DNA of 64,000 nucleotides from Eledone cirrhosa (Eukaryota): contig OZ024743.1 of the NCBI GenBank assembly GCA_964016885.1, positions 321,036,001-321,100,000 of the forward strand, given 5' to 3'. The notes under the pieces are model-generated. The model was not told the DNA's origin. It saw only the letters and a list, made by a program, of their open reading frames with translations, and did not search any database. This document shows positions 15,918 through 64,000 of this stretch, piece after piece. The translations under genes and the position numbers were made by a program. The stretch's first letter is position 1. Each line of letters begins with the position of its first letter.

Positions 15918-17165
15918 TTAAAATGAAACGAAATTTCCTTTCTCACTCTTAGTACTTTTGTTACTTAAATATAAGTATGTATACGTACATACATATATGT
16001 ATACAGACGTACAGTAGTATGTGTATATATACATACATGCACACATATATATATGTACGTATAGATTTACAGAGCATTTATTATAATGCTCGGTTTGTTT
16101 GTAAACAAACATCCCGAATTAAGCCGTACAGTGTTTAGCAACCATCGTTGACCTTTTGCTCAACATTGACAAAGGAACGATGTACTAGTTTCAAGCTTAT
16201 TAGCTATCGTCAGCACCGTATACCTTCCTGCCAGATGATTGAACGTCTGAAAGTATATACTTTCCTTATGCATATTAACGGCTGAGCAGCCTAATTTGCA
16301 TATCGAGTGAGTTAATCGGCCGGACGCACCGAAAGCGATAAATGGAAAAAATGGAACGAAATTTTATTTTTCACTCTTAGTAGGGCTGTTACTTAAATAT
16401 AAGTATGTATACGTACATACATATATGTATACAGACGTACAGTAGTATGTATATATACACATACATGCACACATATATATCTGTACGTATGGAGTTACAG
16501 AGCATTTATTATAATGCTCGGTTTGTTGGTAAACAAACATCCCGAACTAAGCCGTACAGTGTTTAGCAACCATCGTTGCCCTTTTATTCAACACTGACAA
16601 AGGAACGATGTACTAGTTTCAAGCTTATTAGCTATCGTCAGCCCCGTGTAGCTTCCTGCCAGATGATTGAACGTCCGAAAGTATATACTTTCCTTATGCA
16701 TATTAACGGCTGAACAGCCTAATTTGCATATCGAGTGAGTTAATCAGCCGGGCGCACCGAAAACGAAAAATGGAAAAAATGAAACGAAATTTCATTCCTC
16801 ACTCTTAGTACAGCTGTTACTTAAATATAAGTATGTATACGTACATACATATATGTATACGTACAGTAGTATGTATATATATACATACATGCACACAATC
16901 ATCTGGCAGGAAGATATACTGTGCTGAGGATAGCTAATAAGCTTGAAACTAGTTCATCGTTCCTTTGACAGTGTTGAACAAAATGGTAACGATGGTTGCT
17001 AAACACTGTACGGCTTAATTTGGGATGTTTGTTTACAAACAAACCGAGCATTATAATAAATGCTCGGTAAATCCATACGTATATATATATGTGTGTGCAT
17101 GTATGTATATATATACATACTACTGTACGTCTGTATACATATATGTATGTACGTATACATACTTA
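15918..17165. repeat. HHR-containing array of about 428-bp units (about 2.3 copies) plus inverted arm, flanked by (TA)n
   Basis: Repeat starts at about 15920, 16350 and 16780; orientation flips at about 16897. HHRs at 16177-16219(-), 16604-16647(-) and 16921-16960(+). Related to 43766-45287. Confidence 0.85.
16177..16219 (-). ncRNA. Minimal type-I hammerhead
   Basis: acggtg CTGACGA tagct aata agctt GAAA ctag TA catcgt. Confidence 0.85.
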
Positions 17166-17216
17166 TGTATATATACAAATATATATATATATATATACAT
17201 ATATATAGAGAGAGAG

Positions 17217-17485
17217 AGGTAGAACACTGGAAGGTAATATCTGTAGTGGTAGAGCACTCAGTCCATGGAATGAGTTTGGTAGAAGTAGTAACACAACAGT
17301 TACTTCACCATACCGAAAACAATTGTTTCACCTTAGCGGATCTTCAGTCCGAGCCGAAGATCCGCTAAGGTGAAACAATTGTTCTCGGTATGTTGAACTA
17401 ATTGTTGAGTTACAACTTCTACCAAACTCATTCCATGGACTGAGTGCTCTACCACTACGGATATTACCTTACAGTGTTCTACCTA

Positions 17486-17486
<1 letters not shown>
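17217..17486. mobile_element. Fold-back of two pLTR ends joined at their hammerheads
   Basis: Imperfect palindrome centred at about 17350; arms match 1381-1510. HHRs at 17314-17351(-) and 17349-17388(+, core CCGAAGA). Confidence 0.85.
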
Positions 17487-17549
<63 letters not shown>

Positions 17550-20595: not shown

Positions 20596-21341
20596 CAGCG
20601 ATGTAGAGCGATAAACTATTTGTTTGTTACATATATAATATAATAATACAAGGACGATTTGTTTGTTACATATATAATATAATAATACAAGGACGATTTG
20701 TTTGTTACATATATAATATAATAATACAAGGACGATTTGTTTGTTACATATATAATATAATAATACAAGGACGATTTGTTTGTTACATATATAATATAAT
20801 AATACAAGGACGATTTGTTTGTTACATATATAATATAATAATACAAGGACGATTTGTTTGTTACATATATAATATAATAATACAAGGACGATTTGTTTGT
20901 TACATATATAATATAATAATACAAGGACGATTTGTTTGTTACATATATAATATAATAATACAAGGACGATTTGTTTGTTACATATATAATATAATAATAC
21001 AAGGACGATTTGTTTGTTACATATATAATATAAGAATACAAGGACAATTTGTTAAGCCTTCATTACGTTTATTGTTTGGTGACGCGCGTTTCGCTATTGA
21101 TCAGATCAATTTTCGAGCTAAACCGACTCTGGAATAAAAAAAAAACTCGTCGGACCTCTGCTGGTCATTACAACAGTAGATTCCCGACGAGTTTTTCATT
21201 CCAGAGTCGGGCCAGATCAATACAGATCGAACTTTGAGCTGATCAACGGCGAAACGCGCGTCACCAAACAATAAACGCAATGAAGGCTTAACAAATCGTC
21301 ATTGTATTAATATTACACTCTGTCTAGCTCTACACCTCGCT
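20596..21341. mobile_element. Fold-back element (arms about 21025-21155 and 21185-21315) whose left arm includes the minisatellite
   Basis: tttgttaagccttcatt..gacgcgcgtttcg pairs with cgaaacgcgcgtc..aatgaaggcttaacaaa. GAAA cgcgcg TC resembles the 3' half of an HHR. Confidence 0.65.
20618..21046. repeat. 39-bp minisatellite, 11 copies
   Basis: atttgtttgttacatatataatataataatacaaggacg repeated with period 39. Confidence 0.97.
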
Positions 21342-29761: not shown

Positions 29762-29830
<69 letters not shown>

Positions 29831-29835
<5 letters not shown>

Positions 29836-32800
29836 AGTGTAATTTTCTACACAAAACGAAGGTTATAGAGAAAATTGAGGTTGGTAGTGGCACATGGAAT
29901 ATATAAGAGACAGAATACTTTTTTGTGAAAAAACATAATTTTATAAGGTAAGGAAATAATAAAGGGTATAAAAAATGTGAATTTTCTGGTTTTTAGATGT
30001 TTTTTCCAGAGGTGTCCCATTTGGTTTTTGATATGGAGCAATGTCGTTTGTTCTGTGTTGGTATTCATAAGTTTTTCGATGGAGTTGTATACGTTTTGAA
30101 CGTTTAAATAAATTTGGTTGTCAGTCGGTGTGGTGGTTTGGGGTATATCCTGTTTTTTTGTCAGAATGGTGAGTTTTCCATTTATCTCTTTTAGGATTTT
30201 CAGGATTTCCTCATTGATATTGGAGTTTGAAGTGGTGTTGTCTTGTTCCAGTGCCATTTTCCGGATTTGCGTAGGTTAGTATATATGAAAAGTGTAATTT
30301 TCTACACAAAACGAAGGTTATAGAGAAAATTGAGGTTGGTAGTGGCACATGGAATATATAAGAGACAGAATACTTTTTTGTGAAAAAACATAATTTTATA
30401 AGGTAAGGAAATAATAAAGGGTATAAAAAATGTGAATTTTCTGGTTTTTAGATGTTTTTTCCAGAGGTGTCCCATTTGGTTTTTGATATGGAGCAATGTC
30501 GTTTGTTCTGTGTTGGTATTCATAAGTTTTTCGATGGAGTTGTATACGTTTTGAACGTTTAAATAAATTTGGTTGTCAGTCGGTGTGGTGGTTTGGGGTA
30601 TATCCTGTTTTTTTGTCAGAATGGTGAGTTTTCCATTTATCTCTTTTAGGATTTTCAGGATTTCCTCATTGATATTGGAGTTTGAAGTGGTGTTGTCTTG
30701 TTCCAGTGCCATTTTCCGGATTTGCGTAGGTTAGTATATATGAAAAGTGTAATTTTCTACACAAAACGAAGGTTATAGAGAAAATTGAGGTTGGTAGTGG
30801 CACATGGAATATATAAGAGACAGAATACTTTTTTGTGAAAAAACATAATTTTATAAGGTAAGGAAATAATAAAGGGTATAAAAAATGTGAATTTTCTGGT
30901 TTTTAGATGTTTTTTCCAGAGGTGTCCCATTTGGTTTTTGATATGGAGCAATGTCGTTTGTTCTGTGTTGGTATTCATAAGTTTTTCGATGGAGTTGTAT
31001 ACGTTTTGAACGTTTAAATAAATTTGGTTGTCAGTCGGTGTGGTGGTTTGGGGTATATCCTGTTTTTTTGTCAGAATGGTGAGTTTTCCATTTATCTCTT
31101 TTAGGATTTTCAGGATTTCCTCATTGATATTGGAGTTTGAAGTGGTGTTGTCTTGTTCCAGTGCCATTTTCCGGATTTGCGTAGGTTAGTATATATGAAA
31201 AGTGTAATTTTCTACACAAAACGAAGGTTATAGAGAAAATTGAGGTTGGTAGTGGCACATGGAATATATAAGAGACAGAATACTTTTTTGTGAAAAAACA
31301 TAATTTTATAAGGTAAGGAAATAATAAAGGGTATAAAAAATGTGAATTTTCTGGTTTTTAGATGTTTTTTCCAGAGGTGTCCCATTTGGTTTTTGATATG
31401 GAGCAATGTCGTTTGTTCTGTGTTGGTATTCATAAGTTTTTCGATGGAGTTGTATACGTTTTGAACGTTTAAATAAATTTGGTTGTCAGTCGGTGTGGTG
31501 GTTTGGGGTATATCCTGTTTTTTTGTCAGAATGGTGAGTTTTCCATTTATCTCTTTTAGGATTTTCAGGATTTCCTCATTGATATTGGAGTTTGAAGTGG
31601 TGTTGTCTTGTTCCAGTGCCATTTTCCGGATTTGCGTAGGTTAGTATATATGAAAAGTGTAATTTTCTACACAAAACGAAGGTTATAGAGAAAATTGAGG
31701 TTGGTAGTGGCACATGGAATATATAAGAGACAGAATACTTTTTTGTGAAAAAACATAATTTTATAAGGTAAGGAAATAATAAAGGGTATAAAAAATGTGA
31801 ATTTTCTGGTTTTTAGATGTTTTTTCCAGAGGTGTCCCATTTGGTTTTTGATATGGAGCAATGTCGTTTGTTCTGTGTTGGTATTCATAAGTTTTTCGAT
31901 GGAGTTGTATACGTTTTGAACGTTTAAATAAATTTGGTTGTCAGTCGGTGTGGTGGTTTGGGGTATATCCTGTTTTTTTGTCAGAATGGTGAGTTTTCCA
32001 TTTATCTCTTTTAGGATTTTCAGGATTTCCTCATTGATATTGGAGTTTGAAGTGGTGTTGTCTTGTTCCAGTGCCATTTTCCGGATTTGCGTAGGTTAGT
32101 ATATATGAAAAGTGTAATTTTCTACACAAAACGAAGGTTATAGAGAAAATTGAGGTTGGTAGTGGCACATGGAATATATAAGAGACAGAATACTTTTTTG
32201 TGAAAAAACATAATTTTATAAGGTAAGGAAATAATAAAGGGTATAAAAAATGTGAATTTTCTGGTTTTTAGATGTTTTTTCCAGAGGTGTCCCATTTGGT
32301 TTTTGATATGGAGCAATGTCGTTTGTTCTGTGTTGGTATTCATAAGTTTTTCGATGGAGTTGTATACGTTTTGAACGTTTAAATAAATTTGGTTGTCAGT
32401 CGGTGTGGTGGTTTGGGGTATATCCTGTTTTTTTGTCAGAATGGTGAGTTTTCCATTTATCTCTTTTAGGATTTTCAGGATTTCCTCATTGATATTGGAG
32501 TTTGAAGTGGTGTTGTCTTGTTCCAGTGCCATTTTCCGGATTTGCGTAGGTTAGTATATATGAAAAGTGTAATTTTCTACACAAAACGAAGGTTATAGAG
32601 AAAATTGAGGTTGGTAGTGGCACATGGAATATATAAGAGACAGAATACTTTTTTGTGAAAAAACATAATTTTATAAGGTAAGGAAATAATAAAGGGTATA
32701 AAAAATGTGAATTTTCTGGTTTTTAGATGTTTTTTCCAGAGGTGTCCCATTTGGTTTTTGATATGGAGCAATGTCGTTTGTTCTGTGTTGGTATTCATAA

Positions 32801-35582
32801 GTTTTTCGATGGAGTTGTATACGTTTTGAACGTTTAAATAAATTTGGTTGTCAGTCGGTGTGGTGGTTTGGGGTATATCCTGTTTTTTTGTCAGAATGGT
32901 GAGTTTTCCATTTATCTCTTTTAGGATTTTCAGGATTTCCTCATTGATATTGGAGTTTGAAGTGGTGTTGTCTTGTTCCAGTGCCATTTTCCGGATTTGC
33001 GTAGGTTAGTATATATGAAAAGTGTAATTTTCTACACAAAACGAAGGTTATAGAGAAAATTGAGGTTGGTAGTGGCACATGGAATATATAAGAGACAGAA
33101 TACTTTTTTGTGAAAAAACATAATTTTATAAGGTAAGGAAATAATAAAGGGTATAAAAAATGTGAATTTTCTGGTTTTTAGATGTTTTTTCCAGAGGTGT
33201 CCCATTTGGTTTTTGATATGGAGCAATGTCGTTTGTTCTGTGTTGGTATTCATAAGTTTTTCGATGGAGTTGTATACGTTTTGAACGTTTAAATAAATTT
33301 GGTTGTCAGTCGGTGTGGTGGTTTGGGGTATATCCTGTTTTTGGGTATATCCTGTTTTTGGGGTATATCCTGGCACTGGAACAAGACAACACCACTTCAA
33401 ACTCCAATATCAATGAGGAAATCCTGAAAATCCTAAAAGAGATAAATGGAAAACTCACCATTCTGACAAAAAAACAGGATATACCCCAAACCACCACACC
33501 GACTGACAACCAAATTTATTTAAACGTTCAAAACGTATACAACTCCATCGAAAAACTTATGAATACCAACACAGAACAAACGACATTGCTCCATATCAAA
33601 AACCAAATGGGACACCTCTGGAAAAAACATCTAAAAACCAGAAAATTCACATTTTTTATACCCTTTATTATTTCCTTACCTTATAAAATTATGTTTTTTC
33701 ACAAAAAAGTATTCTGTCTCTTATATATTCCATGTGCCACTACCAACCTCAATTTTCTCTATAACCTTCGTTTTGTGTAGAAAATTACACTTTTCATATA
33801 TACTAACCTACGCAAATCCGGAAAATGGCACTGGAACAAGACAACACCACTTCAAACTCCAATATCAATGAGGAAATCCTGAAAATCCTAAAAGAGATAA
33901 ATGGAAAACTCACCATTCTGACAAAAAAACAGGATATACCCCAAACCACCACACCGACTGACAACCAAATTTATTTAAACGTTCAAAACGTATACAACTC
34001 CATCGAAAAACTTATGAATACCAACACAGAACAAACGACATTGCTCCATATCAAAAACCAAATGGGACACCTCTGGAAAAAACATCTAAAAACCAGAAAA
34101 TTCACATTTTTTATACCCTTTATTATTTCCTTACCTTATAAAATTATGTTTTTTCACAAAAAAGTATTCTGTCTCTTATATATTCCATGTGCCACTACCA
34201 ACCTCAATTTTCTCTATAACCTTCGTTTTGTGTAGAAAATTACACTTTTCATATATACTAACCTACGCAAATCCGGAAAATGGCACTGGAACAAGACAAC
34301 ACCACTTCAAACTCCAATATCAATGAGGAAATCCTGAAAATCCTAAAAGAGATAAATGGAAAACTCACCATTCTGACAAAAAAACAGGATATACCCCAAA
34401 CCACCACACCGACTGACAACCAAATTTATTTAAACGTTCAAAACGTATACAACTCCATCGAAAAACTTATGAATACCAACACAGAACAAACGACATTGCT
34501 CCATATCAAAAACCAAATGGGACACCTCTGGAAAAAACATCTAAAAACCAGAAAATTCACATTTTTTATACCCTTTATTATTTCCTTACCTTATAAAATT
34601 ATGTTTTTTCACAAAAAAGTATTCTGTCTCTTATATATTCCATGTGCCACTACCAACCTCAATTTTCTCTATAACCTTCGTTTTGTGTAGAAAATTACAC
34701 TTTTCATATATACTAACCTACGCAAATCCGGAAAATGGCACTGGAACAAGACAACACCACTTCAAACTCCAATATCAATGAGGAAATCCTGAAAATCCTA
34801 AAAGAGATAAATGGAAAACTCACCATTCTGACAAAAAAACAGGATATACCCCAAACCACCACACCGACTGACAACCAAATTTATTTAAACGTTCAAAACG
34901 TATACAACTCCATCGAAAAACTTATGAATACCAACACAGAACAAACGACATTGCTCCATATCAAAAACCAAATGGGACACCTCTGGAAAAAACATCTAAA
35001 AACCAGAAAATTCACATTTTTTATACCCTTTATTATTTCCTTACCTTATAAAATTATGTTTTTTCACAAAAAAGTATTCTGTCTCTTATATATTCCATGT
35101 GCCACTACCAACCTCAATTTTCTCTATAACCTTCGTTTTGTGTAGAAAATTACACTTTTCATATATACTAACCTACGCAAATCCGGAAAATGGCACTGGA
35201 ACAAGACAACACCACTTCAAACTCCAATATCAATGAGGAAATCCTGAAAATCCTAAAAGAGATAAATGGAAAACTCACCATTCTGACAAAAAAACAGGAT
35301 ATACCCCAAACCACCACACCGACTGACAACCAAATTTATTTAAACGTTCAAAACGTATACAACTCCATCGAAAAACTTATGAATACCAACACAGAACAAA
35401 CGACATTGCTCCATATCAAAAACCAAATGGGACACCTCTGGAAAAAACATCTAAAAACCAGAAAATTCACATTTTTTATACCCTTTATTATTTCCTTACC
35501 TTATAAAATTATGTTTTTTCACAAAAAAGTATTCTGTCTCTTATATATTCCATGTGCCACTACCAACCTCAATTTTCTCTAT
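29831..35582. repeat. Palindromic tandem array of a 455-bp PLE-derived unit (about 7.7 copies minus, then about 4.9 copies plus)
   Basis: Identical 136-aa ORFs every 455 bp; flip at about 33324-33371; both ends run into (TA)n; about 147 bp of the unit matches the pLTR end at 1144-1290. Confidence 0.97.
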
Positions 35583-36157
35583 ATATATATATATATATAT
35601 ATATGAGGGCTTAATTCGGTTTGTCTAAGGAAATTTCATTCCTTTGTCCCAACTTTAGAATTGACCGCCAAAACGGGGGTTACCTCTTTTTAGGAAAACC
35701 ACGTGTCTATAGCGAAAATTACTACTAGAAAACACACCCGTCGAGGCTATAGAACGCAAGACTTGTTGACGAAGTAAATCCTTTGTTTTTCGTCAAAGGC
35801 AATTAACTTGCAGACCCCTGCAAGCGGAATTTGTCGATCTCGGATTTACAGAAACCTGGCGTGGATGTTGTATGTTATCTGTGATGTATATTGTATGCTA
35901 TACGTTATGCGTTATGTGTTGCATTCGATGTCCACGCGATGGTCCAGGTCAGTCAAAATCTTTTCCTGAGTTCAGTTTTTTTCGTTGCTATGGCAATGCG
36001 GCTAGACTGTCGGTCGCTATATTTGATTTGCAAAGCTGTCTAAACGTATTGTTATAACTCTGGGGTATTATTCGCCATCGAGTGCTAAGCTGCATTCCGA
36101 ATCTGCATTCGTTAGCTTTGCCGCAGCCAAAAGCTTCGTTAATGCTGTACTAAAATT

Positions 36158-37052: not shown

Positions 37053-38000
37053 CAATCTCCACACCCTCCTCGTCCGCAGCTCCCTACCCCCAACCCACGC
37101 TCCCCCCCGGTTCCCTTCCCTGTTCCAGGCCTCGTTGCAACACCTGCCCCCACATCACCAACACCACCACCTTCCAGGGTCCCAACGGCCACTCTGTCTC
37201 TGTCCGGCACGCCTTCCGCTGCACCTCCTCCAAACTAGTCTATGGACTTCGCTGCACGGAGTGTAGCGCAACCTACGGCGGACCGTTTCACCGAACACCT
37301 CCGGGATATTCGTCTCGGCGGAAGTTCCCCCATCGCCCGCCACTTTGGCTCCCCTGGACATTCCGCGCACCACCTCACAGTCTGTGGCCTACTCCAATGC
37401 CACGGAAAACCCGCCACCCGCCTCAGGGTCGAACAACGCACCATCTTCACCCTACATACTCAGTACACTACACTCCCTCCACCGTCCCCCACACCTTTCT
37501 CTCTCTCTCCCCGCTCCACCAACACCCCTTCACACACACACACACACATCCCACTAACACCTCTACTAATACACACCTCCTCCCCACTCCACCTTTCACA
37601 CCTAACCGTCCTCTCCCCTGTCCACCGCACCTCCGCACACACTGACACACTGACTTTCTCCACCTGCCATTCTGACACAGAAACAAGATGGCGTAGGACA
37701 GAACAAAAGAGAGGCAAAAAAACAAAGAAAAGCATCCCCAGTCACTGAAGAGGTCACAGAATGTGTGACGAAAGAACTTTGACAATATATATAAACAACC
37801 ATCTGGTTGTGGAACCAACCAACCAACCAACCGGAAATTTATAAATTCCTAAATTTATGAATTTATTATAATAAATTGAAGTGAAAGCAAGTGCTGCGTG
37901 TGTTTCTTATTTGCAACATGACCCTCCCAAAGTATAACAATATCGGTTTAAACACACGTTTTCAGATTAAAGAATCTTGCTAAACAAATTCAGAAACGAA
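37053..38000 (+). mobile_element. Chimeric PLE 3' fragment: Neptune-like GIY-YIG + UTR fused to the pLTR of a different family
   Basis: CTSSKLVYGLRCTEC, RFTEHLRDI..PIARHF..RLRVEQRTIFTL. 37675-38000 matches 58420-58740. Confidence 0.75.
37741..37783 (+). ncRNA. Minimal type-I hammerhead
   Basis: gtca CTGAAGA g gtcaca gaatg tgtgac GAAA gaac TT tgac. Confidence 0.75.
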
Positions 38001-38645: not shown

Positions 38646-40133
<1,488 letters not shown>

Positions 40134-43757: not shown

Positions 43758-43765
43758 TTATATAT

Positions 43766-43879
43766 AAGTTGAAAAAAATGAAAACGAAATTTCATTTCTC
43801 ACTCTTAGTATGGCACTTACTTAAATGTAAGTATGTATGCATACGTACATACATATATGTCTACAGACGTACAGTAGCA

Positions 43880-43926
<47 letters not shown>

Positions 43927-44197
43927 GCATACAGGTACACATACATATATGCACGCATCAGTTTAGCCGACGTTTATTATAACGCCTGCTTTGTTCGTTT
44001 GTTTGTCAACAAATCGAACAGCCTGAATTTATGCCATACGGTGTTAAGGCAACCACGTCACCTTTTTGTTCAACACTGACACAGGAACGATGTACTAGTT
44101 TCAAGCTTGTTAGCTATCATCAGCACCGTTTACCCATCTGCCAGATGCGTTTACCCATCTGCCAGATGCGTGCATATATGTATGTGTACCTGTATGC

Positions 44198-44270
<73 letters not shown>

Positions 44271-44708
44271 TGCTACTGTACGTCTGTAGACATATATGTA
44301 TGTACGTATACATACATACTTACATTTAAGTAAGTGCCATACTAAGAGTGAGAAATGAAATTTCGTTTTCATTTTTTTCAACTTATCGTTTTCGGTATGC
44401 CTGACCGATTTAACTCACTCAATATGCAAATTAGGCTGCTCAGCCGTTAATTTTCATAAGGAAAGTATATACTTTCGAACGTTCAACTATCTGGCAGATG
44501 GGTAAACGGTGCTGATGATAGCTAACAAGCTTGAAACTAGTACATCGTTCCTGTGTCAGTGTTGAACAAAAAGGTGACGTGGTTGCCTTAACACCGTATG
44601 GCATAAATTCAGGCTGTTCGATTTGTTGACAAACAAACGAACAAAGCAGGCGTTATAATAAACGTCGGCTAAACTGATGCGTGCATATATGTATGTGTAC
44701 CTGTATGC

Positions 44709-44755
<47 letters not shown>

Positions 44756-45193
44756 TGCTACTGTACGTCTGTAGACATATATGTATGTACGTATACATAC
44801 ATACTTTCATTTAAGTAAGTGCCATACTAAGAGTGAGAAATGAAATTTCGTTTTCATTTTTTTCAACTTATCGTTTTCGGTATGCCTGACCGATTTAACT
44901 CACTCAATATGCAAATTAGGCTACTCAGCCGTTAATTTTCATAAGGAAAGTATATACTTTCGAACGTTCAACTATCTGGCAGATGGGTAAACGGTGCTGA
45001 TGATAGCTAACAAGCTTGAAACTAGTACATCGTTCCTGTGTCAGTGTTGAACAAAAAGGTGACGTGGTTGCCTTAACACCGTATGGCATAAATTCAGGCT
45101 GTTCGATTTGTTGACAAACAAACGAACAAAGCAGGCGTTATAATAAACGTCGGCTAAACTGATGCGTGCATATATGTATGTGTACCTGTATGC

Positions 45194-45234
<41 letters not shown>

Positions 45235-45287
45235 TGCTACTGTACGTCTGTAGACATATATGTATGTACGTATACATACATACTTAT
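43766..45287. repeat. HHR-containing 485-bp tandem array with inverted head, flanked by (TA)n
   Basis: HHRs at 44086-44130(-), 44505-44549(+) and 44990-45034(+); flip at about 44165 after a duplicated cgtttacccatctgccagatg. Confidence 0.9.
44505..44549 (+). ncRNA. Minimal type-I hammerhead
   Basis: aacggtg CTGATGA tagct aaca agctt GAAA ctag TA catcgtt. Confidence 0.9.
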
Positions 45288-45358
45288 ATTTATATATATA
45301 TATATATATGTGTATATATATTTATATATATATATAGATATATATATGTATATATATT

Positions 45359-54845: not shown

Positions 54846-55211
54846 GTATATATATATACGTATATATATATATGTACGTATATATATATATATATATACG
54901 TATATATATATATATATATACGTATATATATATATTGTTATACTTTGGGAGGGCCATGTTGCCAGTAAGAAACACACGCACCAGTTGCTTTCACTTCAAT
55001 TTATTATATATTTATAAATTTAAAAGTTTATAAATTTATAAATTTCTGGTTGGTTGGTTGGTTCCACAACCAGATAGTTGTTTATATATAGTCATAGTCC
55101 TTTCGTCACACACTCTGTGACCTCTTCAGTGACTGAGGATTCCTTTCTTTGTTTCTGTGCCTCTCCTTTGTTCTGTCCTACGCCATTTTGTTTCTGTGTG
55201 TGTGTTGTGTG

Positions 55212-58200
55212 AGATGTCTGTGTTATGTTTACCCCCGAAATTTGCGACATTCAAGAAGGTAAATATGATTAGTTGTCTGTCAGAAATAGAAAAATCATTT
55301 ACAAAACTACGCTGGAGACTCAAAAACAAAAACAAAAGCAACAATATACGCACACACATATACAACACACATCCCAACAACAACAGACACACAGACACAA
55401 ACAACAATAACAACAACACACACACCAACAACAACAACAATAACAACATACCCAGAAACAACAACAACAACAACAGACACGCAGACACAAACAACAATAA
55501 CAACACACACAACAACAATAACACACACGGAGACAACAACAACACACATCAACAACAGCACACATCAACAACAACAACACACACGCATTCAATGCCTCTC
55601 ACCACCACCACAATCTTAACACACACACAGACACAGAAAACAAGTAATGACAGTAGCACAGAAATCACAGAAATAAGGGAAAGTAATAGGATTAAAAGGA
55701 GAAGGGAGACTAAGGACAAAGAGAATAACCAAGACGAACACACAGACGCACTAAATAGGGTAGATAACAACAATGAGCCAGTGGAAAGAGACAGGAGTAA
55801 TTATGAGAGACATAGGAACAACCATGAGGTGGAAATAGAAATAGAAACAACACAACTAACAATAACAATAGCACAATACACATAAAGCAGCAGCCTGGAA
55901 CTCTACGTTTTATAATCCCTCCGATAAATCATTCGACCTGCGACGAGTCCACGCCACGACTTTACCATTTAACAAACGCACACAATTGTCGTCGTAGGTC
56001 GATGAACAAACAGAAGCACAATTTAGTATAGCTAGATCCGAAATTAGAAATATTATAGAACAGTATAGCAAGAAGCATAATAGAATGGAGGCCCAGCAAC
56101 TGGGAGAAAAATCTGCAAATGGCTTGCGTAAGCTCATGCAGCGCTCACGTAATGGAGAGATAGTATGCTTTCCAACAGACAAGTCTGGCAGAATGTCGGT
56201 TGACAGCCTGCCAAACTACATCCAGGCAATGCAACCCCACATCACTAACACAAGAGAGGTAACACCACAGGAGCATGAGGATAGAGAAAAAGCCCTCAAT
56301 ACCCATATGGTGATGTGGACGAATATAATGCATCTCAACAAAAGGACTGCCAACAACTTCCAGGCCTGGAACAATGACGTGCCGGCGTTGTATGGGCTTC
56401 GAAAAGACCATAAAACGGGCTGTGACCCTGTCGCGGGACCACCAACACGGCCAGTCTGTGGAGCTAACATTGCTAGTAACTACAGACTGTCCTACTTCCT
56501 CTCGCTGATCATACGCCCCATCATTGAAATGTCCCCAGATGTATGTGACAGCACGGAGGACCTCCTCAGCATAATCGGCGTGAGTAACCGATCTGGGGAC
56601 CTAACAAACGACATAATAGGCAGTATGGATGTTGTGTCCCTGTATCCATCTATCGACGTCGATTTTGCTGTGGAGAAATGCGTAGAAATGATCAGTGGGA
56701 GCAAGGTTGAGTTCCGTGGGATTGATACCAGTGAGCTGGGACTCCTACTTAAGCTTACCTATAGTAATAATTACCTAGACACATATGACCTTAGCAACCT
56801 GTGCCCTACAAAACCAGCAAGAGGCAGACCACCTACCATTACCTCAATGGCCAAGAAAACCCACACAGATAGATGGAACGGGTGGACCAGAGCCATACGG
56901 ACACCCGAAAACCACGATGAACTGAAGAAAATGATTGCACATGCGGTAGGGGCCAGCATAAAACTAACCCTTAAGGAACATATGTTCAAATTTAATGGAA
57001 AAACATATGCCCAAGAGGAAGGAGCAGCCATTGGTGTTAGCATTGCAGGCAACATAGCTAACTTATTCATGGTATTGTGGGACAGTAGAGTTAAACTTAA
57101 ACTTAAAGAACAATTAGAAGACCCCTTAACCCTGATAATGTACTCCCGCTACGTAGATGATATAAACATCGTAGTTAAGACACCCCCACTAGAGAACAGT
57201 CAGGAACTAGAGAAAAACACAATGGAAAGCATCCAGCAAATAGCAAACTCCATCCACCAGAGCATTAGAGTTACTATAGACTACCCAAGTAAGCACTCCA
57301 ACCATCGATTACCTGTACTAGACACAGAGCTCTGGTTAGATACCATTAACAACAAAAAACAAATCCTCCATTCCCATTATGCCAAACCCATGACCATTAT
57401 ACCAAACCCTGATCCACCGAAACTCGGCCATTTCGGACCATACCAAAATCAACATACTGATTGCGGATTTGGTACGGGTGATGAGAAATGTGTCCCGCAT
57501 GTGCAACCCCGAAGAACTAGAGAGACACATACAACACTTCATCCACCGTATGCAGTTCTCTGGCTACAATCAGAGAGATAAAATCAGAGTGTATAGAGGA
57601 GTCTAAACCAAATGGGAAAAAATGGTAAATAATGGCATAAACGGGACCTGCCCCTTGTATAGGAGCAAATTTTGGAATAGAATAGAAAGAACTAGGAACA
57701 AGGCTAATAGAATAAACTCATGGTATGATAGCAATAAATACCAGAGTGTAATGTTCATCGATACAACCCATAGAGGTGAATTAGCTTACAAATTGAGAAG
57801 GGCCCTAAATAAACATAAACTCAATATTAAGATAGTAGAAAGACCAGGTACCTCCGTAAAAACACTTATTAGCAAGACATACCCTTTTCAAAGACCCTCA
57901 TGTATAGATAAGAAATGTATAACCTGTAAAATAAGCCCCCATATTAACTGTAAAACTAGAAATGTAGTGTATAGCATAAGATGTACTGAAGGACAATGTA
58001 GAGACAAAAATATAGTGTACATAGGTGAGATAGCTCGTAGTGTAGGGGAACGGATAAATGAACACTGGCGAGACCTTCAAGATAATAAAGAATCATCTGT
58101 ACTCTACCAACATGCAAAAACAGACACAAGGGTAAATTAGAGAACATAGAAATAAAAATAGAATCTACACACAGAAAAGACGCAATGTTTAGACAAATTA

Positions 58201-58283
58201 CAGAGGCAATAAACATAAAAGAATTACAACCAAAATTAAATAGAAAATATGAGTGGAACAGCAACATCACAACTTACAATTAA
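55212..58283 (+). pseudogene. Frameshifted RT + GIY-YIG ORF
   Basis: TDKSGR, RKDHK, RPVCG, GSMDVVSLYPSI, QEEGAAIG, YSRYVDD, LPVLD, CIDKKCITC, NVVYSIRC..YIGE, spread over several frames. Confidence 0.9.
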
Positions 58284-58483
58284 GGACAAAATAAAAACAC
58301 ACACACACATAGAACAAACAACCAACCAGTAACATGTAAATAAACAAATAAATAAATGAACATAAACACACACAGACACCCGGATGTGGCGCATGCGCAG
58401 ACTGAGCACACAACACACACACAGAAACAAAATGGCGTAGGACAGAACAAAGGAGAGGCACAGAAACAAAGAAAGGAATCCCC

Positions 58484-58528
58484 AGTCACTGAAGAGGTCA
58501 CAGAGTGTGTGACGAAAGAACTATGACT
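58484..58528 (+). ncRNA. Minimal type-I hammerhead (inverted twin at 55090-55134)
   Basis: agtca CTGAAGA g gtcaca gagtg tgtgac GAAA gaac TA tgact. Confidence 0.85.
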
Positions 58529-58738
58529 ATATATAAACAACTATCTGGTTGTGGAACCAACCAACCAACCAGAAATTTATAAATTTATAAACTTATAAAT
58601 TTATAAATATATAATAAATTGAAGTGAAAGCAACTGGTGCGTGTGTTTCTTATTGGCAACATGGCCCTCCCAAAGTATAACAATATCGGTTTCAATACAC
58701 GATTTCAGATAAAGAATGTTGCTAAACAAATTCAGAAA

Positions 58739-58772
<34 letters not shown>

Positions 58773-58916: not shown

Positions 58917-59002
<86 letters not shown>

Positions 59003-60660
59003 ATATGGCTAGGCAGACTATCATTGAATTCAACGCAGCACTCTGGACTAGAAAAGATAGAACAGACAACTTTGACATCACGATGGGCTCAAGTGACTCT
59101 GCGCAAATCACCGATTTAGTTGGAATTTACCTATTACATAACATCAGAGCCGAAATCCAACCCTTGCAAGGCGGAATATACAGGGACGACGCTCTATTTG
59201 CAGTACACAATTGCACTAATCGGTGCATTGATTTGCTAAAAAAACAATTACATATATTCTTTAAAAATAACGGTCTCTCTATCACCATCGAACCGAACCA
59301 TAATGTAATAAACTTCCTAGACGTCACCTTGGATCTCAACAATAACCTATATTACCCTTACCATAAATCAGGTGAAATACTCACATATATTAGCCCACAC
59401 TCTAACCACCCACCGGCAGTCATCAGAGCAGTAATGGAATCTATCTCGTAGAGGATCTCAATGCTATCAGCAAATGAGGAGTTATTTACAAACCATGCAC
59501 AATATTATCATAAGGCTCTTTCTGAATCTGGTTATGAACAATCAATTTATTACATACCTAAATGCCATAACACAGCAATTCACCATAATACACTTAACAC
59601 TTACACTAGAAATGCCTTAGCATATAGCCAGATTCGCTATACAGGGAAGTTTAATGGTGGCAGCGGCCTGCTCCCCACTCCAAGTAGCAAACTAAAAATC
59701 AACCCTAGAATAGGAATGAGAAATGGGATGACAAATAACAAATCCCCGGGTAATAATAACCCTAGGAAGGCTCCTACCAACTCCACTAGAACCCCTAGAA
59801 GGAATAGACCTAGAAATATCACCTGGCTTAACCCCCCCATCCTCATCTAATCTAGCCACTAATATCCCTAAACGCTTCTTCTCTATACTATCTAAACATT
59901 CCCCTCCCCCCAACCATATATATTACAAACTCTTTAATAAAAATAACATTAAAATCTCATTCTCCACAACACCTAACCTAGCTAGCCACATCGCATTCAG
60001 TAACCATCATAAACTAAGACAGTATAACTCCCACACCGCGGTACCACCACCCCTATCAAATACACCACGCCACTACACTAATAATTACTCTAGTAGCACA
60101 CCTCCCCCATCTAATTCTTCTAGCACTGACCTACCGTTTAGGTTAAACTACTCTACTCTCACTAATCGAAGTAGCAACTGCAACTGCCGTTACCCTAATG
60201 CATGCCCATTAAATGGACACTGCCTGACACCCAACATAGTCTATAGGTTCACGGTTAAAACTGCTTCGAATACCAGCTCTTATATCGGGTATACCTCTAA
60301 CCCTTTTAAGGTACGCTATAACGCGCACTCTTTTTCCTTCCGAAACTATAGCAACAGATGTTCGACATCGCTAGCTAGGCTCATTAAAAACCTTAAATTA
60401 AGCAACGTTAAACACTCACTAAAATGGGATATCGTGGCTAGGGCCCAACCGTTCAATGGACGAAGAAAATCGTGTGATCTCTGTATTACAGAAGCATATT
60501 ATATAACTCTATCACGACCTCTACCGATTAACGATAGAACAGAGGTAACTATTAGCTGTCAACATCGAAGGGCTAATTCTTCGCCAATAGAATATTTGAC
60601 CCATCTTAGTCATCTAGCCTCATTTTTACTTGTAGCTAATAAGTTAAATAGCTATGACTA
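59003..60660 (+). mobile_element. 5'-truncated degraded PLE (Hydra-like)
   Basis: [62 protein letters not shown]. Confidence 0.88.
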
Positions 60661-61435
60661 ACTTAGATAATTATAAGTTACCTCCCCTACATTGTCTCTC
60701 AATTAAAAAATTTAAAAATTAGCATTTAACTATAAACTACCCACAATTTCTAATCTATCGAGGAGTTACTTCCCCTGAAACCACCTTCTTATTAGTAAGG
60801 TAAATATGTCCTTTGGCAGCTATCTTGTTACCCATAGGCAGATCTCACACAATGCAGCCTTTACAGATGAATACTGCTTGATTATGGCTGACAACTGATG
60901 CAACCAAGACATCATAGTGAAAAACAAATATATAGAACATTATATTATGTAACATTCTCTCCTTTTTATAATTTATATTCCTTTGAAGTTCCGATGAGCC
61001 GCTCTGTTTTTTAAATATGTTAATTATTTTCAACTGAACCAGATCAATTATGATATATAGTCATCTGATTCAGAAATATGATATGGAGTAGCGAAACAAT
61101 TGTAAACAGAAATTATTATTATTAATATTATTATTATTATTATTCTCTACATTCCTTACATCAAACTAAAATATGTTGACAATCTTTTAATAATGTCTTC
61201 CTTGTAAAATTTGTGGTCTTGCTTTGCTTAACTAATGAATATTTCCAGCTCTGCGCACCTAACTTCTGCATGAACCCAGCCACCTAGCTGTTTTCTACTG
61301 CATATTGCACATTGAGCACATGCCTTTACGCTTTGGCTTCTAACTAATTCACCAATCTCTCCTCTCATATCTCCATCTCTCTCTTTAACATTAGTTACTC
61401 TTGAACTATGTATACGTATATATATATATATATAC

Positions 61436-61496
<61 letters not shown>

Positions 61497-61499
<3 letters not shown>

Positions 61500-64000
61500 T
61501 GGAATAAATGCTCTGAAATAGCGATATATATGTGAATATAGACATAGAATATTCGAAAATATTCTGTATGTTTATAATAAACATTTTGAAGACCTAATCG
61601 CTATAGAATAGAATACGTCACGTATTACAATTAGATTCTCGATAAAAGCAAGGGAAGTAATCTACGCGTTTCATTCTTGTTAGAAATCATCAGGACTACA
61701 TATCCAGTGCTTTTATCGAGAATGACACAGCTAGAGACTTATAGAATACTTAGCTGTGTACAGGAACTGGTTTGAAAGAGCGGTTGCCGGTCCGGCAGAA
61801 ATTAGAAATTGGAATAAATGCTCTGAAATAGCGGTATATATGTGAATATAGACATAGAATATTCGAAAATATTCTGTATGTTTATAATAAACATTTTGAA
61901 GACCTAATCGCTATAGAATAGAATACGTCACGTATTACAATTAGATTCTCGATAAAAGCAAGGGAAGTAATCTACGCGTTTCATTCTTGTTAGAAATCAT
62001 CAGGACTACATATCCAGTGCTTTTATCGAGAATGACACAGCTAGAGACTTATAGAATACTTAGCTGTGTACAGGAACTGGTTTGAAAGAGCGGTTGCCGG
62101 TCCGGCAGAAATTAGAAATTGGAATAAATGCTCTGAAATAGCGATATATATGTGAATATAGACATAGAATATTCGAAAATATTCTGTATGTTTATAATAA
62201 ACATTTTGAAGACCTAATCGCTATAGAATAGAATACGTCACGTATTACAATTAGATTCTCGATAAAAGCAAGGGAAGTAATCTACGCGTTTCATTCTTGT
62301 TAGAAATCATCAGGACTACATATCCAGTGCTTTTATCGAGAATGACACAGCTAGAGACTTATAGAATACTTAGCTGTGTACAGGAACTGGTTTGAAAGAG
62401 CGGTTGCCGGTCCGGCAGAAATTAGAAATTGGAATAAATGCTCTGAAATAGCGATATATATGTGAATATAGACATAGAATATTCGAAAATATTCTGTATG
62501 TTTATAATAAACATTTTGAAGACCTAATCGCTATAGAATAGAATACGTCACGTATTACAATTAGATTCTCGATAAAAGCAAGGGAAGTAATCTACGCGTT
62601 TCATTCTTGTTAGAAATCATCAGGACTACATATCCAGTGCTTTTATCGAGAATGACACAGCTAGAGACTTATAGAATACTTAGCTGTGTACAGGAACTGG
62701 TTTGAAAGAGCGGTTGCCGGTCCGGCAGAAATTAGAAATTGGAATAAATGCTCTGAAATAGCGATATATATGTGAATATAGACATAGAATATTCGAAAAT
62801 ATTCTGTATGTTTATAATAAACATTTTGAAGACCTAATCGCTATAGAATAGAATACGTCACGTATTACAATTAGATTCTCGATAAAAGCAAGGGAAGTAA
62901 TCTACGCGTTTCATTCTTGTTAGAAATCATCAGGACTACATATCCAGTGCTTTTATCGAGAATGACACAGCTAGAGACTTATAGAATACTTAGCTGTGTA
63001 CAGGAACTGGTTTGAAAGAGCGGTTGCCGGTCCGGCAGAAATTAGAAATTGGAATATTTTCGAATATTCTATGTCTATATTCACATATATATCGCTATTT
63101 CAGAGCATTTATTCCAATTTCTAATTTCTGCCGGACCGGCAACCGCTCTTTCAAACCAGTTCCTGTACACAGCTAAGTATTCTATAAGTCTCTAGCTGTG
63201 TCATTCTCGATAAAAGCACTGGATATGTAGTCCTGATGATTTCTAACAAGAATGAAACGCGTAGATTACTTCCCTTGCTTTTATCGAGAATCTAATTGTA
63301 ATACGTGACGTATTCTATTCTATAGCGATTAGGTCTTCAAAATGTTTATTATAAACATACAGAATATTTTCGAATATTCTATGTCTATATTCACATATAT
63401 ATCGCTATTTCAGAGCATTTATTCCAATTTCTAATTTCTGCCGGACCGGCAACCGCTCTTTCAAACCAGTTCCTGTACACAGCTAAGTATTCTATAAGTC
63501 TCTAGCTGTGTCATTCTCGATAAAAGCACTGGATATGTAGTCCTGATGATTTCTAACAAGAATGAAACGCGTAGATTACTTCCCTTGCTTTTATCGAGAA
63601 TCTAATTGTAATACGTGACGTATTCTATTCTATAGCGATTAGGTCTTCAAAATGTTTATTATAAACATACAGAATATTTTCGAATATTCTATGTCTATAT
63701 TCACATATATATCGCTATTTCAGAGCATTTATTCCAATTTCTAATTTCTGCCGGACCGGCAACCGCTCTTTCAAACCAGTTCCTGTACACAGCTAAGTAT
63801 TCTATAAGTCTCTAGCTGTGTCATTCTCGATAAAAGCACTGGATATGTAGTCCTGATGATTTCTAACAAGAATGAAACGCGTAGATTACTTCCCTTGCTT
63901 TTATCGAGAATCTAATTGTAATACGTGACGTATTCTATTCTATAGCGATTAGGTCTTCAAAATGTTTATTATAAACATACAGAATATTTTCGAATATTCT
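61497..64000. repeat. Palindromic tandem array of a 310-bp hammerhead-containing unit (retrozyme-like): 5 copies, then about 3 inverted copies running off the window
   Basis: ggaataaatg at 61501, 61811, 62121, 62431 and 62741; flip at about 63052; starts at a (TA)n tract. Confidence 0.97.
63227..63269 (+). ncRNA. Minimal type-I hammerhead (also 63537 and 63847 on +; 61657, 61967, 62277, 62587 and 62897 on -)
   Basis: gtagtc CTGATGA t ttct aaca agaa t GAAA cgcg TA gattac; stem I extended by ttctcgataaaagca/tgcttttatcgagaa (63204-63290). Confidence 0.9.

Follow-up and report, generated by a model that had tools for sequence, protein, structure and literature searches.

A two-armed array of 310-bp hammerhead repeats in the Eledone cirrhosa genome: a probable retrozyme insertion made by a Penelope-like element

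A 64,000-nucleotide stretch of the Eledone cirrhosa genome (contig OZ024743.1, positions 321,036,001 to 321,100,000; hereafter 'the window') ends in a tandem array of a 310-bp hammerhead ribozyme repeat, arranged as two head-to-head arms and set in a (TA)n microsatellite. We conclude that this array is probably a single, recent insertion of a retrozyme lacking long terminal repeats (a non-LTR retrozyme), made by the reverse transcriptase of a Penelope-like element (PLE) via a 310-nt circle and two-strand priming at (TA)n. As the source of the enzyme that mobilises animal retrozymes, PLEs have so far been proposed from co-occurrence and from likeness to their pseudo-long terminal repeats (pLTRs). 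Here, hammerhead repeats and PLEs with an open reading frame (ORF) lie in one 64-kb window and carry one footprint, comprising outward-facing arms, (TA)n and a tail on one side. Their sharing of it is direct structural evidence that PLEs mobilise retrozymes. Relative to the literature searched, what is new is this PLE insertion footprint on retrozyme arrays, complete on two sister arrays in the window and half visible on the 310-bp array. Together with the published two-strand priming by a PLE protein, it leads to a testable account of PLE inverted repeats.

The 310-bp unit and its hammerhead

The window has 35% GC, is rich in (TA)n and is dense in fragments of reverse transcriptase (RT) and GIY-YIG sequence, as would be likely for an animal genome; its Hydra-clade PLEs suggest an aquatic invertebrate (PMC8557442). 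Tandem Repeats Finder called a period of 310 at 61496-63056 (5.0 copies) and at 63052-64000 (3.1 copies), and base-by-base comparison of the units located one mismatch in the left arm, at 61834, and none in the right, or 1 mismatch in 2505 bp for both arms. The initial annotation had described eight near-identical, non-coding units inverted near 63052, and each part of that description holds: there are 5.04 and at least 3.06 copies with eight cores, the arms overlap at the inversion (Table 1), and no frame of the repeated unit, which is 34% GC, stays free of stops for more than 59 amino acids; no ORF start was found in the unit. At the joint the left arm stops at unit position 157 and the right arm begins at unit position 99, the first base of a hairpin at 99-116. 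At its outer end the left arm stops at unit position 167, directly abutting the TA run. Anchoring in (TA)n, as first proposed, therefore stands for the left end, while the right end lies beyond the window edge at 64000 and a second flank is not within the window; ATATATAT at unit positions 132-139 is one candidate phase for that end.

Hammerhead cores are present in all eight units, with C3 at 61693, 62003, 62313, 62623 and 62933 on the minus strand and at 63233, 63543 and 63853 on the plus strand. Every core reads CUGAUGA...GAAA; stem I measures 6 bp and stem II 4 bp, and the palindrome ACGCGU is accompanied by the cleavage triplet GUA, which in the reference copy ends at 63263 exactly as first placed; the distal helix of stem I, previously given as 15 bp, measures 16 bp. 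The motif has two weak points, namely a U·U apposition (10.1/11.1) at the base of stem II and a stem III consisting of a single A-U pair that closes a CGCG loop. Rfam gave no match at the gathering score anywhere in the window, and the best match of the unit was Hammerhead_HH9 at 19.2 bits (E 0.053), compared with a gathering score of 52. Hence the earlier claim of a complete type I hammerhead per unit is borne out for the core in all eight copies, but it overlooked the U·U, and the one-pair stem III and the subthreshold Rfam score also qualify it. In the HH9 alignment the UAU bulge in stem I and the UAACAA loop 2 stand at the positions where that family carries its loop 1 and loop 2 elements, and because of this resemblance the hammerhead appears to be of canonical type and not the minimal motif it had been taken for.

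The hammerhead of the 310-bp unit aligns without gaps to that of a second family in the window, with units of 428 and 485 bp, and 8 of 13 pairs are altered on both sides. None of 500 shuffles reached 8 of 13 and slid controls gave at most 2, although all eight covarying pairs represent a single contrast between two families, with a structure drawn from these same sequences, so that the result is supportive and is not a probability. No other ribozyme family was found in the 310-bp unit at E values up to 10, Rfam matches to MIR8562 and Fluoride (E 2.6-5.2) being regarded as chance. The hammerhead occurs in one polarity per unit, whereas a viroid-like replicon would carry ribozymes in both.

Folded as a circle, the unit has a predicted energy of -67.8 kcal/mol, compared with -47.2 +/- 4.4 among 150 dinucleotide-shuffled controls (z -4.7), and the antisense strand is equally stable (z -5.0). 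The minimum free energy structure of the monomer contains stems I and II, and the ends of the linear monomer are predicted to be held in stem I. For the two-unit stretch 63200-63610, the unconstrained minimum is a double hammerhead at -109.9 kcal/mol, compared with -103.1 for two single motifs, with pair probabilities of 0.95-0.98 for the crossed stem I, 0.87-0.96 for the dimer stem III and 0.52-0.75 for stem II. Self-cleavage is thus predicted to rely chiefly on the double hammerhead formed across the ACGCGU palindrome, and the dimeric cleavage put forward in the initial annotation stands as a prediction.

By sequence criteria the unit is a non-LTR retrozyme and represents a new family. Its 310-bp period, in 5.04 + 3.06 copies, falls within the 150-450 bp of non-LTR retrozyme tandem units, it is low in GC and non-coding, and the monomer is predicted to be highly self-paired with a foldable ribozyme. 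Neither hallmark of an autonomous PLE or pLTR, an ORF with RT and GIY-YIG or homology to a pLTR, was found for the unit within the window. A tRNA-derived short interspersed nuclear element was ruled out as its origin, ARAGORN finding no tRNA genes in the 64-kb window and neither strand of the unit carrying an A-/B-box pattern.

A layout shared across the window

The two-armed form is the ordinary PLE insertion layout of this genome and is not special to the 310-bp unit. Sister array A (428-bp unit) has the same hammerhead architecture as the 310-bp unit; its copies are ~93% alike, it appears to be older, and one of its arms is 51 nt longer at the 3' end. Sister array B (485-bp unit) belongs to the same family as A, being ~84% alike over the common part; here one arm is ~62 nt longer at the 3' end and the joint carries a 21-bp duplication. 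This 428/485 family has an internal (TA)n, the U·U and a palindromic CTAG tetraloop, and is represented by two arrays of different ages, of each of which one arm ends at the identical site. Both arrays are visible end to end and contain no ORF.

A 455-bp array repeats the layout on a larger scale, with arm ends offset by 39 nt (a one-sided tail) and a 28-nt slipped joint, and no hammerhead or other ribozyme family was found in its unit. It is therefore the ribozyme-free counterpart of the 310-bp array, and because it has the same layout, a ribozyme-made circle is not needed for multi-copy arms. A solo fragment of the 455-bp unit at 1143-1297 stops at the same unit position, 451. The unit also contains a 142-amino-acid stop-free frame without relatives; its interpretation as a PLE N-terminus was unsupported (0 matches among 1.84 billion representatives, atlas scores <0.85).

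RNA sense points outward in all six structures of the window whose polarity is defined by a hammerhead: the 310-, 428- and 485-bp arrays and the pairs 17347/17355, 45877/49573 and 55129/58489. A one-sided 3' extension occurs in four of the six other two-armed elements compared, namely the 455-bp array (39 nt), the 428-bp array (51 nt), the 485-bp array (~62 nt) and a Neptune-like PLE (54 nt); the element at 17185-17510 is without a tail and 45877/49573 is ambiguous. This count covers elements of known or assumed sense, that of the 455-bp array being assumed from its reading frame, and leaves aside two small palindromes whose sense is not known. At their inner joints the arms meet in short overlaps or slipped duplications. 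The 310-bp array accordingly shares with PLE insertions a head-to-head inverted structure with an overlap at the joint and a (TA)n target at the left end, the only end inside the window.

PLEs of the kind that could supply the enzyme are resident in (TA)n within the window, as the initial annotation had stated, and belong to the Hydra clade and a Neptune-like type. The Hydra-clade 716-amino-acid frame, a candidate helper type, directly follows a long (TA)n, and its best database relative is 54% identical. The broken Neptune-like PLE has hammerhead cores at 55129 (-) and 58489 (+), TA at both ends and the 54-nt one-sided tail given above, so that the layout of the arrays is also found in an ORF-bearing element. 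Pfam returned 2 weak matches in 9 PLE proteins of the window.

Further elements complete the picture of the window. The Neptune-like PLE has an Asn/Thr/His-rich stretch near 55350-55580 and a related end lies at 37675-38000. A broken Hydra-like PLE (59000-61110) adjoins the 310-bp array on the left and is not related to its unit; at its 3' end is a hammerhead-like core (60991 and 61093) that carries a long insert and did not pass the stem criteria. The element at 17185-17510 lies between (TA)n/(GA)n runs and is built of two pLTR-like arms, placed head to head, that carry hammerhead cores. No motif was found in either of the short palindromic elements at 21035-21308 and 39548-39851, the former of which is joined to a 39-bp tandem array at 20618-21053 (11.2 copies, 99%).

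Table 1. Coordinates of the arrays, the reference hammerhead and the main PLEs in the window
Feature	Position	Strand	Details
Left arm, 310-bp array	61496..63056	-	1561 bp = 5.04 units of 310 bp; RNA sense outward (leftward); base-by-base comparison
Right arm, 310-bp array	63052..64000	+	949 bp, at least 3.06 units; RNA sense outward (rightward); reaches window end
Inversion joint	63052..63056	.	5-bp overlap GAATA common to both arms
(TA)n microsatellite	61417..61495	.	Target at visible (left) end of insertion
Predicted monomer, cut site to cut site	63264..63573	+	310 nt, 34% GC, non-coding; rod-like predicted fold, both ends brought together in stem I
Reference hammerhead with extended stem I	63203..63291	+	Pattern, Rfam alignment and folding
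Distal 16-bp helix of stem I	63203-63218 / 63276-63291	+	
GGA paired with TCC	63221-63223 / 63271-63273	+	
Bulge TAT	63224-63226	+	
Stem I	63227-63232 / 63264-63269	+	
Core CTGATGA	63233-63239	+	
U10.1 and U11.1	63240 and 63253	+	
Stem II	63241-63244 / 63249-63252	+	
GAAA	63254-63257	+	
Palindrome ACGCGT	63257-63262	+	Predicted cut after 63263
Sister array A, 428-bp unit	15920..17170	.	2.3 antisense + ~0.65 sense units, TA at both ends
Sister array B, 485-bp unit	43764..45292	.	0.8 antisense + 2.3 sense units in (TA)n
455-bp two-armed array	29825..35583	.	7.73 + 4.86 units (12.6 copies), 0 mismatches, in (TA)n
Stop-free RT + C-terminal GIY-YIG frame, 716 amino acids	50882..53032	+	Hydra-clade PLE motifs RWR, DKT, CxCx5C, CxxC, CxH; candidate helper type
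Broken Neptune-like PLE	54935..58740	+	DKSG, CX4CxxC linker; inverted 5' pLTR

Occurrence outside the assembly

Of 24 listed sequencing runs, 20 contained the unit at a share of 0.76-1.00 of its 25 sampled words; they come from 16 studies and carry 17 coded organism labels, and 13 studies remain when the three at a share of 1.00, possible sources, are set aside. Runs X21-X23 contained next to none of the sampled words, and there was no RNA run with the unit among the runs listed. Three of the 20 unit-bearing runs (X1, X10 and X18) were inspected as contigs, and each yielded one unit-length contig closed head to tail, at depths of 11.9, 34.2 and 5.1 and with 0, 1 and 1 differences from the unit respectively, that of X18 being without 63270-63299. 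The sole listed difference in two of the three, one of them at depth 5.1, is T to A at 63240, which turns the U·U into an A-U pair; a young, near-perfect array for which a natural U/A variant exists in a ribozyme stem lends itself readily to tests of cleavage and of priming in vitro. The raw Hi-C run X24, a study mate of X11 with the same label and from another sample, had 0 unit reads in 1938 million letters and carries no weight as a test.

These contigs confirm that the head-to-tail unit exists outside this assembly, and their evidence does not extend to inversion or integration. A flankless circle at modest depth would be equally expected from trace DNA of a high-copy repeat, from a low-coverage skim of a host or from an RNA circle, and the coded run labels may include metagenomes, close kin or runs with trace DNA. 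On the strength of the 20 runs, 16 studies and 17 labels, with 0 or 1 difference in all three contig runs, one could read the unit as a retrozyme now spreading between animal species, its 310-nt circle integrated in many unrelated hosts and written as two-armed arrays by their resident PLEs. We consider this unlikely: none of the inspected contigs includes host flanks, and the same picture would come from trace DNA of a single common species or from close kin. Integration in unrelated hosts would also be very surprising because retrozyme sequences are described as species-specific (PMC7229834). The literature searched contained no case of a non-coding ribozyme circle that had recently spread horizontally among animals. 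If integration in unrelated species were true, it would amount to just such a spread, by a viroid-like parasite of PLEs.

Searches for the hammerhead pattern gave no copy of the unit in viral or JGI metagenome contigs. The exact pattern had 0 matches in either collection, and a relaxed pattern returned 95 loci, none with a BLAST match to the 310-bp unit at E 1e-4. One of 97 matches to the relaxed pattern had stems of the required form, most others looking like minimal PLE-type motifs or chance. In the 374-bp locus L092 the hammerhead is laid out as in the 310-bp unit, but a G-C pair closes the base of its stem II; L005 and L043 have a stem II with U·U like that of the 428 family, and L016 has two head-to-head minimal hammerheads.

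Mode of insertion and comparison with known systems

From the anatomy, the fold predictions and the recurring layout we infer cleavage, a circle, a helper and two-strand priming, in the following order. A multimeric transcript would cleave itself after GUA, mainly as a double hammerhead via the ACGCGU palindrome, and the 310-nt monomers would be closed into circles by a host ligase, as in other animal retrozymes. A (TA)n-targeting PLE protein would then introduce a nick in each of the two strands and, at internal start sites, prime cDNA running inward from either side, with several rounds of copying around the circle, or template jumping, for each arm; finally the two cDNA ends would unite through the 5-bp overlap GAATA. 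The template spanned the cut, because the arms traverse several cleavage sites and the visible end at unit position 167 is off the cleavage site. A circle, an uncleaved multimer and template jumping all fit such a template, and the circle is the likeliest, though not required.

Several observations weigh against this account. The 455-bp array has the same layout and no ribozyme was found in it, so uncleaved multimeric RNA or template jumping could stand in for the circle. The U·U at 10.1/11.1 lowers stem II stability to the pair probabilities of 0.52-0.75 given above, as a monomer an axolotl motif that has this mismatch reaches only 22% cleavage in one hour (PMC7229834), eight of nine Xenopus retrozyme dimers failed to cleave in vitro (Li, Clavereau and Pollet, bioRxiv 10.64898/2026.07.22.740005), and hammerhead mutants had no effect on PLE insertion in vitro (PMC11167929). 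Within the window the 310-bp unit is at one locus, where a target-site duplication would be illegible in (TA)n; elsewhere in the window its likeness is confined to TA-rich chance matches and a weak match (E 0.016) to the hammerhead of the sister family. Beyond TA-rich chance matches it has no homology to PLEs or pLTRs of the window, and hence no helper family is indicated. With the right end outside the window, neither a tail nor the second (TA)n flank is visible, and the three contig runs contained no loose ends, strand-change joints or host flanks, which leaves the inversion without read support.

Other explanations for the two arms keep or discard parts of this account. The right arm could have arisen from a single priming event in which the GAATA 3' end of the cDNA folded back, paired with a copy made earlier in the same strand and copied the left arm; this would still be a PLE-made retrozyme insertion, and we regard it as improbable. 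It accords with the start of the right arm at the first base of the hairpin, with the interpretation of palindromes at inverted junctions of Penelope as self-priming (PMC3846280), and with the nearest register (61856-62804 against 63052-64000, with a 247-nt loop), which is 100% complementary. Longer-loop registers are excluded, one because it places the 61834 variant at 63712, where there is none, and the others because they end the arm by 63743; only one register is left, in which the variant copy would fall at 64022 and the arm end at 64360. Moreover, the arms end at different sites in four of the six other elements, and in the 428- and 485-bp arrays the shorter arm is no simple truncated mirror of the longer. 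Growth in place, by which a pLTR-derived hammerhead monomer was expanded through unequal crossing-over or slippage and inverted later, with no circle involved, is a route discussed for retrozymes (bioRxiv 10.64898/2026.07.22.740005), and near-identical copies are also expected from recent unequal exchange. Yet it predicts neither the outward polarity in six of six structures nor one-sided tails nor (TA)n ends at non-integer phases, and both arms are homogenised to one sequence across the inversion, with 1 mismatch in 2505 bp; it is very improbable.

Still less probable is an origin of the units by multiplication of a pLTR that belongs to an ORF-bearing PLE lying past 64000. PLEs do form partial tandems and inverted 5' copies, retrozymes are reported as related to pLTRs and the right end is not visible, but the unit has no ORF start and no likeness to the pLTRs of the window, the sister arrays are seen entire without an ORF, and the unitigs of all three contig runs are closed at unit length without loose ends (contigs drop rare forms). 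Nor are the units the pLTR of any PLE inside the window. We attach the least probability to the inversion being an artefact of assembly or of long-read fold-back, the tandem alone being real. The almost perfect identity, the contact of the array with the window end and the lack of a strand change in the three contig runs would be consistent with it; against it, the joint is not mirror-symmetric (phases 157 and 99), and the layout recurs in three further arrays that have different flanks at either side; in one of these the copies are 93% alike, which would not be expected of an artefact.

Read as a PLE-made retrozyme insertion, the array can be set beside several described systems. Animal non-LTR retrozymes, for which cleavage and circles have been demonstrated experimentally (Cervera and de la Pena 2020, PMC7229834), resemble it in their 150-450-bp, low-GC, non-coding tandem units, each with one type I hammerhead and a self-paired fold, and in the presence of PLEs in the same genome; the present unit is known from sequence alone. 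Two head-to-head arms and (TA)n targeting are features of the present array not met in the covered part of that paper. No publication describing the two-armed form for retrozymes was found, most subscription papers and key supplements lying outside the literature covered and supplements possibly showing such arrays; the novelty first suggested for this form stands to that extent, but the form itself is a published PLE layout that recurs in the window, even in the hammerhead-less 455-bp array. Animal retrozymes are also called species-specific (PMC7229834), whereas the 310-bp unit is near-identical under 17 run labels. The axolotl motif HHR_Amex1 has a one-pair stem III with a palindromic tetraloop and HHR_Amex2 a U·U at the base of stem II, both as in the 310-bp unit, which joins in one motif the two weak features that axolotl has separately, a likeness of description and not of alignment; the axolotl and newt satellite hammerheads have units of 330-350 bp and cleave better as dimers (PMC7229834).

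Among PLEs, Penelope has inverted pLTRs placed head to head that overlap and may carry a tail on one side (PMC3846280), other clades have the same head-to-head layout, and Hydra and Naiad target (TA)n (PMC8557442). Purified Poseidon protein cuts and extends both strands, starting at two internal RNA sites with the gap between them equal to the tail, and the hammerhead is dispensable for its insertion in vitro (PMC11167929). The endonuclease-bearing PLEs (Penelope/Poseidon, Neptune, Hydra and Naiad) thus share with the 310-bp array the head-to-head inversion, the joint overlap, the (TA)n target and the hammerhead, and with its sister arrays the one-sided tail (PMC3846280, PMC8557442, PMC11167929). 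They differ from it in that the array has no ORF, has multi-copy arms and shows no likeness to the pLTRs of the window, and the tails of the window elements measure 39-64 nt compared with 30-40 bp published for PLEs. Non-autonomous Chlamys PLEs such as MRC1 are likewise non-coding and form multicopy head-to-tail insertions made by a PLE, but they are algal, mostly lack canonical hammerheads and have 3' ends in common with autonomous partners (PMC8557442). Closest in its conclusion is the work of Li, Clavereau and Pollet (bioRxiv 10.64898/2026.07.22.740005), who favour local, satellite-type expansion for the tandems and propose retrozymes to be non-autonomous derivatives of PLEs; they arrive at the same helper from co-occurrence and pLTR phylogeny in vertebrates, where the present analysis arrives at it from the footprint of insertion.

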